Positions 11,545 to 19,895 of a stretch of DNA of 64,000 nucleotides are shown here, in pieces. The stretch lies in the NCBI GenBank assembly GCA_012295275.1, contig CM022678.1:11160001-11224000 (forward strand), read 5' to 3'. This DNA comes from Chrysomallon squamiferum. Taxonomy: Eukaryota > Animalia > Mollusca. The notes beneath the pieces are model-generated. The model did no database searches. It was not told where the DNA came from and was given only the letters and a program-made list of their open reading frames with translations. Made by a program: the position numbers and the translations under genes. The stretch's first letter is position 1, and each line of letters begins with the position of its first letter.

Positions 11545-11632
11545 AACTAATTTCTTCTGGCACGGCCGCCTCGACTGGGACCCGACGACATCTGCCGGGC
11601 GCTACGTGCGGGAGAACTGCAAACCACTCTAC
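11545..11632 (+). CDS. CLK2: CLK post-LAMMER insert exon, copy a
   Basis: TAAG|A ACT...CTC TAC|GTGAGT; 88 nt, phase 2 to phase 0; encodes (K)[29 protein letters not shown], the conserved CLK LDWD...SAGRYV...CKPL segment. Confidence 0.93.
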
Positions 11633-12254
11633 GTGAGTACTGGGCATGCTCAGTGCACCTCCGTCCTACGTCTCGCAACAGTAGACGCATGTTTTAATCT
11701 TAAACCTGTTTTTTTTAACTTTATCAATTTTGGTGCATTTTTTTTAAAGCATTACGTGTGCATGTTAACACTTGTTGTGTGGTAATGAAGGTAGTTACTG
11801 TGAAGAGGTGACTAACGATTTAATTAAACGAGTCGGGTGGGTGGGGTTTTGATTGCAGGTGCAAACAGGTAATGCTAGAAAAATGCACTGAATGAGTACT
11901 GCAGGCTTTGTTTGCTTGCATGTTTGTCATGAACTGGTCTTAAAGCTGTTTGGGTAACAGATCTACACTATGGTGTGTGTAAGAGTATTTCTGAGTCCAT
12001 CCTTGCATTCGAGTATGCATACATGACATGAGTGTGTGTGTATCCTTTATAAAAATCATTGATGAAGATTTCAAACATTCATCCATTTTAATTTTTTTTT
12101 AATTTTTTTTTTATCTACATACACCTGTGACTGTCTTGTTACCCAGACAGTCTTGTCAGTCAGTCTGTCTGTCTGTCTGTGTGTGTGTGGGCATGTTGTC
12201 TGTAGCTGTTTTTTTGCATTTGTTTTTTTTTTTTTTTTTCTCTCTTGATTGAAG

Positions 12255-12345
12255 AAAACAAAAATACTTCCATCGGGGCAAGTTTGACTGGGACCCAGAC
12301 AGCGAAGCAGGTCACTATGTCAGAGTTCACTGTCGACCAATCAAG
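12255..12345 (+). CDS. CLK2: CLK post-LAMMER insert exon, copy b (paralogous, mutually exclusive candidate)
   Basis: Long poly-T tract, GAAG|A AAA CAA...ATC AAG|GTGAGT; 91 nt, phase 2 to phase 0; encodes (K)KQKYFHRGKFDWDPDSEAGHYVRVHCRPIK, colinear with copy a and with no stops. Confidence 0.88.
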
Positions 12346-15694: not shown

Positions 15695-18600
15695 TAGTCT
15701 GACACTGAGCTCCGCTTTCCTCTCGGAATTAGTCTCTTATTTTACACACAGAGTTGAAATCTTAGTAATCATGACATTAGATCATAGGCATATTCCGTTT
15801 TCTTTTAATGTTATTTCGTTTATTTTTTTTATTTTTTTATTTTTTTTAACCCCAAACGAATCAAGTCACATTTTTTTTTTGTATTCTCTCCTCTTTGTAC
15901 AGACTAATCCTGATTCTTCAGTTAGCATCAAACTGAAACCCCAAGATCTAGTTCCCAATGCAGGTTTGAATTGTTCAGTTTTGTTGTTATTTCCAAGAAA
16001 GACAAAACAAAGCTATAATGTTAATTTTACAGTTTGTACATATGTTGATTGGTTTACTGTACATATCAGATTAATATATTTAAAATGGATTGAACTGTTT
16101 AATGATTTCTGTGCTTGTTACTGAGAATAAATATAATAGCAATTTGAGATATATTTATACATAATATATAAATATATACATACATATATATATATATATA
16201 TATATATAACTGTTGATTAATCTGAAATTGTTTTGAATTATTGTTTCCATAAATTTCATTGTTAACACTAACCCATTACACTGTTTTCATATCTCATTGT
16301 GTATAATGCATTTTGACTGTTTGCATTTTCAACTTGTAAATCCATAACAGTGTAACAACATATTCTTTTTTAAATGAGGTTATTAATAGATAAGTGTCTG
16401 CTTGCAACACATCAAACTCGGTATTTCAAGAATGTATGCGTGGAAGATAGAAATATGTTTGTGTGGCTTTCTAAACTTGTCTGTTTTTGATAGTTCTGTT
16501 TGTTCAGAACTTACATTGGCCATCACACCTAAACTGTCCTATTTCCTCACAGAACTAAACTGTCCCATTTACTCACTTTGAGCACAGGCCTTAACTGTCC
16601 TATTTACTCAGTGTGAGCACAGGCCTTTGATTATTCTTTCATTCTTTTCTTTTTTTCAAAGTGATTTTCAGATGAAACAAAACTCACTGAAACCCTGCTA
16701 ACACATTTAATAGAGAATTAATATGATCTGAAAATGAACACAGTAATGGTGGTACAACTATTACTTCTACTACTACTACTACTACTACTACATTCAGCGG
16801 AAATTTATCAAGTTTGATCTATCATTCCCAGCGTTGTTGCTTTCCTGGTGTAAACTGGTTCCTTCTGATTCAGTTTCTTGCTAGCTGACTGATGAGGCAT
16901 TTTCAAAGGCATCAACTTGCAGTAAAAGTACTTTACAACCCACAATCCTACCAACCCCTAGACCAGTTGACCCTTCCAAGGTCAATGACCCTGAAACTGT
17001 ATAATATGGGACTTCAAAAACATCTGTTTTATTTATTTATTTATATTTTCAAAATTTATGATGTGCCCATGTCTAGAACCCCCAAAGCTGCTGTTTATTT
17101 CCGGGGGGGGGGGGGAAGTAAATAAAATAATTTTCAAAGAACTTGATGGTCCTTGCTAGTGAATGTCAGTTGACTGAGGAATTGTGGGTATTTCTGCGTT
17201 GTCTAGGCATGTTGTTCAAATCTGACCACTGAACTTTTTATTTTTCCTTTTTTCAGTAATTCTTTCTTTCTGTTAATATTTTCTTTATTTTAAAACCTTT
17301 TTTTTTTTTTTTTTTTTTTGTCTTTATTTTATTTATTTTTTCTTTGCCTTCGTTCATATTATTCCAATTGGTCCCTTTTGAATCTTCTGTATTGTATTTT
17401 TCAGTTTTCAGTTTATTTTCTGAAATTAAACAAAAAAAGAAGAAAAAAAAAAAATTAAAAAAAAAAAAATCTTTAATGTCAAAATCAACAACAAATATCT
17501 TTATTTTTATTGATATTATTTTTTTTTTTTTTTTCTTTTTTTTTTTTTTTTTTTTTTTTTTAAACAATCTTATCTGTTGGGAATGCATTTGAACAAATCT
17601 CACTTAACAAATCTAATTAAAACAACTTACTGTGACTAAAAACCTTGTTACAAGCCAAAACCCACTGACATACCTAGAACCCAGCCAGCTCTGTAACCAT
17701 GGTAACCACACGCCTGTTAGTAGCCTGCCTTCAGTGTGTTGTGCTGTTTCATTGGCTGTTCATATAGTCAGGATATAGAAATGAACCAATCCAGTCATCC
17801 GACACAATCTTAGATGAATCATTTTTGTTTTTCATTTTGGCTTGCTTATATAACTTTTTTGTTTTTATTATTATTTTTTATTTATTTTTATTTATTTTTT
17901 GCTATTTGCTGATATTTTCAGCAGTGAGAGCTTTTGTATTAGGTCATGTTTATCAACTCTGAGGTCAGGTCAGAAAATATTTTTATAATTTATTTATTTA
18001 TTTATGTATTTATTACTTTTTATTTTTATTTTTTTCTATTTTTTTAAAATTTATTTAAATTAATTTTCACAAATTTTTCTTACATTATTTTTAATAATAA
18101 TAATAATAATAATAATAATATAATTTGTTTTTATTTAAGTCAAGAAATACTGTTAATTAAAATTTTGCACAAACCTTAATCAATTATTGTTTAATAGAAA
18201 ATAAATAACAAATGTAGGAATGTCAGTTTTTCTAAACAGACATTAATAGAAGAATTGTGTTGATTACTTTTTCTGGCCATTGTTATTTAATTATTTATTT
18301 ATTTATTTATCATCATTAATTTTTTTTTTTTTTTTTTTAGTTTATTTCATCTGTTGATTGTTGTTGATGACTGGAAATGTTAAAACTGATCTAGATTTAT
18401 TTTTGTTTCAGAACGCAGGTGCATTTCATGTGCTGTTGAAAAATGTTGTCTTAATTTCGTCTTTCTTTTCAGTTCTCTCTGTCAGTTTGTTCTTTTTAGC
18501 ATTTTGATGTTCTACTTCTCTTTTATTTTTCTTTCATTTACTTAATTATTTGTTTTATTTTATTTTATTCTTCATTAATCAGTCTTCAAGCACTTGTTGG

Positions 18601-19685
18601 TATTATGTCTTAGGCCAAGCTTGTTATTTGCATTTTTCATTTAAAAAAAAAATTAAATAAATTTAAATTTATGCAGTATCATTATGATTTATCATTTCCA
18701 ATTTATTTTAAGAAAGCTTTGCTTTTTTTTGCTTTTTTCTTTTGGTTTTTTTAGTTTATGCACGAGTAAATAAATTTTCTTTCTTTTTTTTTTTTTTTTT
18801 TTTTGCTTTTTTTTTGACATTCATACATTTTTTTAAATTTATTTTTACTATTATTATTATTATTATTTTTTTTTTATATATTATTTAGTTGTTGTTTTTT
18901 TATAGTTTCAAGATGATAACAAAATTAGGAAAAGCTTTCAGAAAAAAAAAATCATTGAACTGCTGATTTATTAATCATCATTAATAACAATTAAAATTAA
19001 TGATTTTTAAATCTCAAACTGCATAAATTTAATTTTTCTCTCTCTCTCTCTCTCTGTCATATATATGTGTTACTGCTTCCAGTTTGTGCTGCATGAGAAA
19101 AATATTGGTAGTTTTATACTGCCTCAGTGTTGTCATGTTCAAAAGAAAATTACTCAAAATGTAACAAGCCAATGATAGAACCCCCGACAGTTCAAAAGAA
19201 TTTTAAAATAAATCACTAGAAATCACAAACAAACCTCCGTACATTGCTTGAATTTTTACCTGAGGATAATTGGCCTCCATGAACAAGATAGTACATTCCA
19301 CAGTCTTTGGTGCCACTTTTGGAATGGGAAAATGTGTCTGCTATGTAATTTGGTATTTGGTATTTATTATGACACATGATTTTTTTTAAAGAGAGTTTTG
19401 TCAATTTTGGATAAAAAAAACCCACATTAAAAATGAAAATGAAAATAAAACTGATAATAATAATAATAATAATAGAAGTGAAGGAGAAGAAGTTTGCCTA
19501 ATTTGCAAATGTTTAGTCTTATTAATTACAATAATAATACTAACTTTCGTAATAAAATTCATCATTACTTGTTGCATTTTGAACGTACACGAAATGGACA
19601 GAAAAGAAAAAAAAAAGACTTAAAAGCATTTATAGTGTGTTAGCGTAGCCTGTTGACTAAAGTCCCACTAATACACGTCTTGCAG

Positions 19686-19895
19686 CGCTACCTAAAGGAA
19701 CCTGACAGTGAGGAACATCGTCAGCTCTTCGACATCATCACCAAGATGCTGGACTACGACCCCCACGAGCGCATCGCGCTGAAGCAGGCGCTGAGGCACC
19801 CGTTCTTCCGCCGCTTCTACGAGGAGGACCTCGTGCGCAGCTTCGACAACCCCAACACCAAGGACCGGTGTCGCTCGCAGAGTCTGAGCAGATGA
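19686..19895 (+). CDS. CLK2: CLK alternative terminal exon B: canonical short C-terminus
   Basis: TCTTGCAG| phase-0 acceptor; RYLKEPDSEEHRQLFDIITKMLDYDPHERIALKQALRHPFF...RSQSLSR*; GC-rich coding-like island in AT-rich surroundings. Confidence 0.93.
   Translation, partial: RYLKEPDSEEHRQLFDIITKMLDYDPHERIALKQALRHPFFRRFYEEDLVRSFDNPNTKDRCRSQSLSR

Follow-up and report, generated by a model that had tools for sequence, protein, structure and literature searches.

The closest described precedent for combinatorial splicing of a kinase is found in JNK1 and JNK2 (MAPK8/9), where exons 7a/7b and the p46/p54 C-termini are reported to combine into four isoforms (PMC8746764, PMC8327911). In that system, as described, a CMGC kinase combines mutually exclusive exons within its kinase domain with a choice of C-terminus that is made independently. 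Homologous exons in tandem, flanked by an intron with (U)GCAUG, are also described for egl-15 5A/5B, unc-32 7a/7b, and FGFR2 IIIb/IIIc; in egl-15 of Caenorhabditis elegans, RBFOX is described as repressing an exon via UGCAUG in the upstream intron (PMC3585155). The repressed exon of egl-15 is the upstream member of the pair and the described site of unc-32 lies downstream of the pair, whereas the putative RBFOX targets of the CLK locus analysed here lie between the exons. Mammalian FGFR2 IIIb/IIIc has its sites between the two exons.

The gene of Chrysomallon squamiferum shares the LAMMER motif, HTD loop, activation segment, and MAPK-like insert with human CLK1–4, Drosophila Doa, and C. elegans MADD-3. 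CLK (LAMMER) kinases are known to have isoforms in the nucleus and in the cytoplasm that serve different roles. The described invertebrate CLK isoforms vary in their N-termini and have the catalytic domain in common, whereas the C. squamiferum gene swaps the C-lobe itself. The locus is one CLK gene in which mutually exclusive exons (a/b) precede two alternative last exons (A/B), and the members of both pairs are represented in RNA. We consider it probable that tissue-regulated RBFOX sets the a/b choice by repressing b, which would give kinases with different C-lobes.

The likeness to JNK has limits: JNK belongs to another family and is not homologous, the CLK pairs are whole duplicated exons, the first pair swaps the CLK-specific helix alphaH, and the second also replaces the last kinase helices. 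Compared with the four JNK-type pairings, Octopus models have four, Haliotis models three, and C. squamiferum RNA two. Since two-by-two kinase splicing is known from JNK, the locus does not represent a novel type of system; new are the GCATG upstream of b and its candidate link to RBFOX. Automated RefSeq/GenBank models of mollusc CLK2-like proteins contain the same a/b and A/B peptides as numbered isoforms, which are unannotated predictions, and no description of the paired CLK duplication, its age, or its regulation was found in the literature.

Structure and splicing of the locus

The features of the 64,000-nt window, the whole stretch of DNA that was analysed, are listed in Table 1. The gene starts upstream of the first kinase exon listed; the part corresponding to the disordered RS-rich N-terminus, which is present in Gigantopelta and Haliotis models, lies upstream of the window. 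The translation and its alignment with human CLK2 show the HTD catalytic loop and a CLK activation segment, and exon L encodes the 11-residue LAMMER motif in helix alphaG; this exon is 80 nt long in all eight checked related loci that hold it. The sequence of both a and b contains the MAPK-like insert with its conserved Trp (CLK1 position 418 in a, 419 in b) and helix alphaH.

Table 1. Features of the CLK locus of Chrysomallon squamiferum (assembly GCA_012295275.1, contig CM022678.1, 11,160,001–11,224,000, forward strand); positions refer to the 64,000-nt window
Feature	Position	Strand	Evidence
First CLK kinase exon of the window (VALK, helix alphaC)	2298..2414	+	Translation, splice sites
Hinge-region exon, CLK kinase	2828..2918	+	Translation; start placed by eye at AG
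Helix alphaE exon, CLK kinase	8883..8958	+	Translation; end placed by eye at GT
Catalytic-loop exon (HTDLKPEN), CLK kinase	9367..9461	+	Translation, splice sites
Activation-segment exon (DFG...APE)	9803..10015	+	Translation; aligned with matching human CLK2 segment
Exon L (LAMMER), 80 nt, end phase 2	10315..10394	+	Translation
Exon a, 88 nt, mutually exclusive; spiralian-type MAPK-like insert and helix alphaH	11545..11632	+	RNA junctions, length conservation, clade
a–b intron with five GCATG (RBFOX-type) at 11644, 11687, 11760, 11918, 12191	11633..12254	+	Motif count; putative function
Exon b, 91 nt, mutually exclusive; ancestral-type MAPK-like insert and helix alphaH	12255..12345	+	b>B junction, Trp419 register
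Exon A, alternative last exon; kinase-domain end and 501-residue Ser/Asp/Thr/Pro-rich tail	14054..15694	+	Translation, a>A junction
Exon B, alternative last exon; kinase-domain end and short tail ending in RS motif	19686..19895	+	Translation, b>B junction

All four exons hold up as genuine and intact, and all are spliced. An earlier note on this DNA had proposed two paralogous exon pairs within one CLK gene, and its coordinates, frames, splice sites, and homology are borne out: all four exons have AG acceptors, and a and b have GT donors. Exons a and b are adjacent homologs, both in phase 2 to 0, with 48% peptide identity (tblastn), and similar lengths (88 and 91/94 nt) recur at four further loci. 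Exons A and B, both in phase 0, are 66% identical across 29 residues (tblastn). As alternative last exons they have acceptors in use, stops, and poly(A)-type hexamers: exon A comprises 546 codons and a stop, with AATAAA at 16126 and 17121, and exon B 69 codons and a stop, with hexamers from 20041 on. Pfam recognizes only the kinase end in both (Pkinase positions 231/236–263). Exon A lies in a frame that runs for 558 codons without a stop, the longest such frame in the window. A protein search with exon B as query gave a single match.

RNA evidence comes from contig sets of four runs of one study, in which rare forms are dropped and expression cannot be ranked; reads were aligned over the a–b stretch, so that L>b, the A/B sides, and the 3' ends lie outside direct view. 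Among the junctions named in the earlier note, b>B is present in all four runs, L>a in three, and a>A in one contig of one run, each with exact splice sites, and a>B and b>A are absent from the contigs of the four runs. The only read difference within a or b, at 11590, occupies a third codon position and, as read from the sequence, retains Thr; those listed for the a–b intron comprise 9 substitutions and 8 indels. Three runs show read-through from exon a into the intron, of RNA or DNA origin (the two are not distinguishable).

Inclusion of both a and b, or of neither, leads to a frameshift and an early stop. Both exons are spliced, none of the classified proteins contains both, and no a>b joint occurs in the contigs of the four runs, which miss rare forms. 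The a–b intron (GT-AG, with GTGAGT donors) measures 622 nt, which excludes steric hindrance (<50 nt). U2/U12 exclusion was likewise rejected, and such mechanisms are optional for mutually exclusive exons.

Candidate control of the a/b choice by RBFOX

In all five loci with b (one from a gastropod, one of bivalve type, and three of annelid type), GCATG lies within 110 nt upstream of the b acceptor, a width picked in hindsight (a limit of 60 nt captures 2 of 5 and one of 80 nt captures 4 of 5), whereas it precedes none of the 21 other acceptors of the same loci and only one of 38 other acceptors in 12 loci. The a–b introns of the five loci together contain 17 copies, with 4.8 expected, and that of C. 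squamiferum contains 5, with 0.79 expected; neither count was reached in any of 2000 shuffles. Only two of the five introns are individually enriched at p < 0.05, and the GCATG nearest to b extends to the full TGCATG in only two loci. A (U)GCAUG beside exon b is conserved at the post hoc width, and the pair a/b is likely a tissue-regulated switch, with RBFOX as its candidate regulator.

Where RBFOX is high (by analogy, in neurons or muscle), the GCAUG upstream of b would block the b acceptor, and the GCAUG downstream of a would favour a, which in C. squamiferum would mostly be joined to A. Where RBFOX is low, b would be chosen, in most cases together with B, and the product would be the canonical SR-protein kinase. 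Transcripts with both exons or with neither would be removed by nonsense-mediated decay as frameshifted.

It is possible, albeit not the reading we favour, that the two pairs are genuine and under regulation while a/b is set by other RNA-binding proteins, RNA pairing, feedback of CLK through SR proteins, or temperature, with GCATG incidental or minor. RBFOX sites alone are described as not fixing tissue specificity, co-factors being needed (PMC3585155); the read-through from exon a resembles a slow or feedback-controlled intron, and b is represented in only five loci. However, GCATG is the only 5-mer common to all five regions upstream of b, with a composition-matched probability of 1.8e-6, or 0.002 when allowing for 1024 words. 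As to pairing of docking and selector elements, no inverted repeat recurs among those listed for the five loci (the list for the window is swamped by simple repeats).

Age and conservation of the two duplications

The duplication that gave rise to a and b is old, as judged from gene models and genomic loci, which place it in molluscs, annelid-type loci, and a nemertean; A/B followed later and is confined to molluscs within the sample. Both a and b are present in Ruditapes, unionids, and the nemertean Tubulanus. The order L-a-b-B without A was found in L007, L026, and L032/L033, and a-b-A in L034. Exon a is 88 nt long in all checked related loci, and its homologs form one spiralian clade (support 100/99, 13 rows); the A exons are grouped with support 93/95 (7 rows). 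L017 (a chance match without CLK exons) was left out, and L033, which lies on the L032 contig, does not enter the motif counts; the second tree omits b_Tubulanus, and the classified rows omit P0135. The earlier note was right that more than one duplication is needed, a/b being older than A/B across loci, and the order a-b-A-B, which it had found at odds with one tandem block duplication, simply follows from two duplications of different age and calls for no special event.

The same note had mentioned a long C-terminal isoform of Drosophila Doa. The long Doa isoform is described as varying N-terminally, with a catalytic domain common to all isoforms (PMC9653240), and none of 81 insect proteins contains an a-type or A-type segment.

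Conservation also bears on the unlikely case that the isoforms are real but nearly equivalent, with a and b as interchangeable backups and A contributing no more than a tail or another 3' UTR that alters the amount of mRNA or protein. Exon b is missing in 15 of the 20 genomic loci spanning a to a last exon, all 15 being one sequence type, so that one lineage retained a alone; the scan used an a-type pattern, which sees only lineages with a, and its five spliced contigs contain a by design. Where b is missing, a+B is possibly the sole form, which argues against a as a narrowly specialised kinase. Tubulanus and C. squamiferum each have a strongly diverged b, and in the latter a long branch (0.57) marks the exon as fast-evolving. 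The tails of A range from about 10 to about 860 residues, and only that of Gigantopelta aligns with the tail in the window (BLAST). Yet identity among six molluscs amounts to 88% for a and 62% for b, and across phyla each of the two has retained a length and diagnostic residues of its own. The start of exon A (H-x-L-x-D-K-G) is kept in gastropods, bivalves, and cephalopods, and short islands of its tail are common to abalone.

Canonical form and combination of the pairs

The earlier note had taken a+B as the canonical form and b+A as a nested, co-regulated cassette, a model that we regard as highly improbable. In C. squamiferum, a is indeed nearer to the human-CLK2-type exon than b (21 and 17 of 30 residues), but the order is reversed in abalone (22 and 24); it is the unusual divergence of b in C. 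squamiferum that misled the earlier note. Exon b matches human CLK in its length, its KQKYF start, and the register of Trp419, whereas a belongs to the spiralian clade. The RNA has b+B and a+A only; b+B is the canonical form, and a nested b+A cassette is absent.

Gene models agree: all three of Gigantopelta are a+A, the 13 of Haliotis comprise seven a+A, two a+B, four b+B, and no b+A, and b occurs without A in annelid-type loci. The notion that the pairs can combine is upheld by the Octopus/Argonauta models, which include all four pairings. Among the 15 Octopus models listed, seven are b+A and six a+A, and one further protein is also b+A; because b+A is as frequent there as a+A, coupling of the pairs is no rule. 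The probability that b or A represents a pseudo-exon, an artefact of the assembly, or part of another gene is negligible: a>A is supported by one contig, but RNA junctions, orthologous exons in three mollusc classes, the lack of an extra copy of any kinase exon in the 64-kb window, and the single CLK gene reported for Mollusca (PMC12795684) argue against it.

Consequences for the kinase

The segment encoded by a/b corresponds to CLK1 residues 407–437, comprising covering strands 409–418, Trp419, and alphaH 424–432. In human CLKs, alphaH blocks an SRPK-type docking groove, and this helix is the proposed source of the difference in substrate docking between CLK and SRPK (PMC2667211). Exchange of a and b would alter this helix and the strands covering the groove. 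Exons A and B encode the last kinase helices followed by a low-complexity tail of about 500 residues (A) or a short tail ending in RS (B), so that their exchange would replace the short tail by a long, likely disordered one. We therefore propose that the forms would be set apart by their substrate access, localisation, or temperature response rather than by catalysis. The AlphaFold predictions for P0005 (an a+A protein; mean pLDDT 45.5, rmsd about 21 Å to CLK2) and P0018 (a b+B protein; mean pLDDT 60.1) are too poor for a comparison of alphaH.

More speculatively, and in our view rather doubtfully, spiralians may have replaced CLK gene duplication by an RBFOX programme of Cambrian age. In neurons or muscle, an RS-free N-terminus, a, and (in molluscs) A would be used together, and the nuclear kinase that senses temperature in splicing would thereby become a kinase without RS, likely in the cytoplasm, that has a remodelled lid over the docking groove and its own thermal set point, and the fast-evolving b of this lineage would be where the splicing thermometer was retuned.

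CLKs are described as controlling how SR proteins are phosphorylated and how splicing depends on temperature, and the determinants of their thermal profiles are presumed to lie in regions other than the activation segment that have yet to be identified (PMC12795684). The locus offers four natural variants of one gene that differ only in alphaH and the C-terminal end and are kept across phyla, and with such matched variants the questions of thermal profile and docking become testable. It also makes RBFOX a candidate regulator of a master splicing kinase in molluscs and annelids, animals in which the control of splicing has received little study.

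Two alternative exon pairs in one CLK gene

A single CLK gene is represented in the window by its 3′ part. Its LAMMER exon (L) is followed by two mutually exclusive insert exons (a and b) and two alternative last exons (A and B); no further copies of kinase exons were found within the window. The peptides of a and b are 48% identical; for A and B the figure is 66%, over 29 residues. The reading frame is shifted if a and b are both included or both skipped. The peptides of both pairs are already present in automated annotations; the closest species-named relatives of exon A are those of Gigantopelta aegis (92%) and Haliotis asinina (80%).

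Features of the window
Feature	Position	Strand	Remark
VALK exon	2298	+	first kinase exon in window; translation
Tandem repeats, minisatellite-like	about 4400-4960, 7700-8090		6-kb CLK intron; by eye
LAMMER exon	10315-10394	+	translation
Exon a	11545-11632 (88 nt)	+	phase 2 to phase 0
Exon b	12255-12345 (91 nt)	+	phase 2 to phase 0
Exon A	14054-15694	+	starts in phase 0
Exon B	19686-19895	+	starts in phase 0
457-codon open frame	28794-30167	-	presumably with motifs of protein arginine methyltransferase
325-codon open frame with DHHC motif	31921-32898	-	presumably palmitoyltransferase-like
Further exons	43787-45802	+	taken to resemble translation elongation factor 1-alpha

Exon pairing in transcripts and gene models

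Contigs from four RNA runs of one study, compared with positions 11540-12350, are evidence of presence, not absence, and their depth gives no expression ranking. Contigs leave b at 12345 into the first letters of B in all four runs, L is joined to a in three (with 9 to 28 nt of L), and a single contig of one run (X4; 28 nt of L, the whole of a, and 246 nt of A) leaves a at 11632 into A. The pairing proposed in the earlier note, a canonical a+B and a co-regulated b+A cassette, is reversed by the RNA, which gives b+B and a+A; neither a>B nor b>A, nor a>b, is listed among the contigs of the four runs. Read-through into the intron after a (11633-12081; three of four runs), whose frame stays open for 50 codons before a stop, may stem from pre-mRNA, a retained intron, or DNA. 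Both exon pairs are real, expressed, and ancient.

The pairings in relatives are those of gene models, not necessarily transcript-proven. The 13 full models of Haliotis comprise seven a+A, two a+B, four b+B, and no b+A, and all three Gigantopelta models in the same cluster are a+A. The 15 models listed of the 29 in the Octopus/Argonauta cluster are divided into a+A (6), b+A (7), a+B (1), and b+B (1); Ruditapes has a+B and b+B, and unionids have a+A, a+B, and b+B. Among further representatives in which an A-type exon is present and the insert can be seen, eight of nine are a+A and one is b+A, with tails mostly of 700 to 860 residues. The nemertean Tubulanus combines a and a strongly diverged b with a single last exon; its b (P0154-P0156) lacks the Trp otherwise strictly conserved in CLKs. 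Neither a nor A was found in insects (0 of 81 LAMMER-motif proteins among 96 listed).

An RS-free alternative N-terminus (M-R/K-V-D start), which lies outside the window, is common to gastropods, bivalves, cephalopods, and annelid-type proteins. Among 16 proteins with this start (including P0005, P0013, P0028, P0031, P0033, P0048, P0140, P0160, and others), 13 carry a, which hints weakly at a coordinated programme, and eight are a+A. Small additional segments at the junctions of the insert exons, possibly micro-exons, comprise 12 residues between L and a (loci L010 and L031), seven between a and A (P0033), and, in one Haliotis isoform (P0014), three within the beta-hairpin.

Consequences for the kinase and the canonical insert

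Exons a and b span the equivalent of CLK1 residues 407-437, which comprise Trp419, helix alphaH, and the two strands that form the sheet of the MAPK-like insert. This insert is reported to be a hotspot of divergence and to contain a splice site conserved from fly to human (PMC12795684); alphaH is described as covering the groove used by SRPK1 for docking, besides burying the LAMMER helix (PMC2667211). The catalytic loop and activation segment lie outside the swapped exons and are identical in all isoforms. A and B each encode the end of the kinase domain as modelled in Pfam. B closes with a short RS motif conserved from insects to molluscs, and the 501-residue tail added by A, of which Ser, Thr, Pro, Asp, and Glu make up 51%, has a net charge of -15, two RS/SR dipeptides, and short islands in common with abalone.

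The canonical insert is b, not a as previously assumed: human CLK2 aligns without gaps with abalone b, followed by a B-like segment, and the conserved Trp, counted from the LAMMER motif, falls on CLK1 position 419 with b and on 418 with a. Identity to the human-CLK2-type exon (of 30 residues, b versus a) is 24 versus 22 in abalone, 25 versus 19 in unionids, 23 versus 18 in locus L026, and 22 versus 22 in Octopus; only in C. squamiferum is b the more distant (17 versus 21), forming a long branch (0.57 versus a median of 0.1). Several changes in this b, which is present in all four runs, fall in alphaH. The nearest species-named relative is a vent snail, and thermal tuning is a possible reason for the divergence. 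Arthropod exons match a in length and resemble b in their residues. Across six molluscs, identity is 88% for a and 62% for b; by sequence, the derived exon, a, is the more constrained of the two.

Order and age of the duplications

The order a-b-A-B, recognized previously as unlike that of one block duplication, is directly explained by two separate single-exon duplications. An exon-a pattern scan yielded 43 loci (one chance match, five spliced contigs, all a+B, and 37 genomic loci), and exon order could be read in 20 genomic loci reaching from a to a last exon: L-a-b-B (L007, L026), L-a-a'-b-B (L032/L033, same contig), and a-b-A (L034). In 15 loci of one sequence type (L001, L003-L005, L008, L009, L018, L021, L022, L024, L027, L035, L037, L038, L042), the order is a-B, and b was not found even by a splice-site-guided search between a and B; one lineage retained a and lost b. 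The three consecutive insert exons of L032 (9879-12330), namely a, another exon of the a type (a'), and b, have intact frames and splice sites. Exon a measures 88 nt at all loci checked, and b 91 nt except in L034 (94 nt).

L007, L026, and L032 cluster with Dimorphilus, an annelid, and L034 clusters with Mactra, a bivalve. In trees of only 30 to 44 columns, the a exons form a single clade (100/99 with 13 rows; 100/96 with 17 rows) and the A exons a separate one (93/95; seven rows). The annelid-type loci searched yielded no A exon. Thus, a/b arose before the split of molluscs, annelids, and nemerteans, over 500 million years ago, and A/B arose later, on present sampling in molluscs.

Regulation and relation to known systems

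The a-b intron contains five GCATG motifs versus 0.79 expected (0/2000 shuffles), and those of the five b-bearing loci together contain 17 versus 4.8 expected, with two of five significant singly. GCATG lies within 110 nt of every b acceptor (64, 40, 8, 105, and 68 nt), a width fixed after the distances were known (two of five at 60 nt, four of five at 80 nt); the corresponding counts for other acceptors are 0 of 21 in these five loci and 1 of 38 across 12 loci. No other 5-mer is common to all five b acceptors; among control combinations, 52 of 648 have any 5-mer in common, mostly TGCAG and T-rich words. RBFOX, which binds (U)GCAUG, is described as acting from the upstream intron to repress egl-15 exon 5B and as promoting neuronal unc-32 exon 7a in C. 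elegans, with tissue specificity provided by co-factors (PMC3585155). By analogy with these genes, the motifs near the b acceptors lead us to lean towards repression of b by RBFOX. Frame-shift surveillance is reported as a common back-up for mutually exclusive pairs, in the text available (PMC5740500). The choice between A and B might be based on the use of the proximal acceptor and poly(A) site.

We encountered no description of the pairs in the accessible literature on CLK/LAMMER splicing in molluscs and lophotrochozoan exon duplications (including PMC3774672), or in that on RBFOX in molluscs; an earlier mention is possible, as this literature comprised few subscription journals, no supplements, and no original papers on Doa isoforms. 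The accessible text of a 2025 survey of the CLK family names Mollusca once, as single-copy, and annelids and Octopus never (PMC12795684). Isoforms described for fly and worm CLKs vary at the N-terminus in the text available (PMC12795684, PMC9653240, PMC4849719), which, for the fly, disagrees with the long-C-terminal Doa isoform mentioned in the earlier note (PMC9653240). The closest design is that of JNK1/2, a different kinase family, whose four isoforms are described as combinations of two C-termini with mutually exclusive exons inside the kinase domain (PMC8746764; PMC8327911). The CLK locus is likely a switch of the C-lobe, putatively set by RBFOX.
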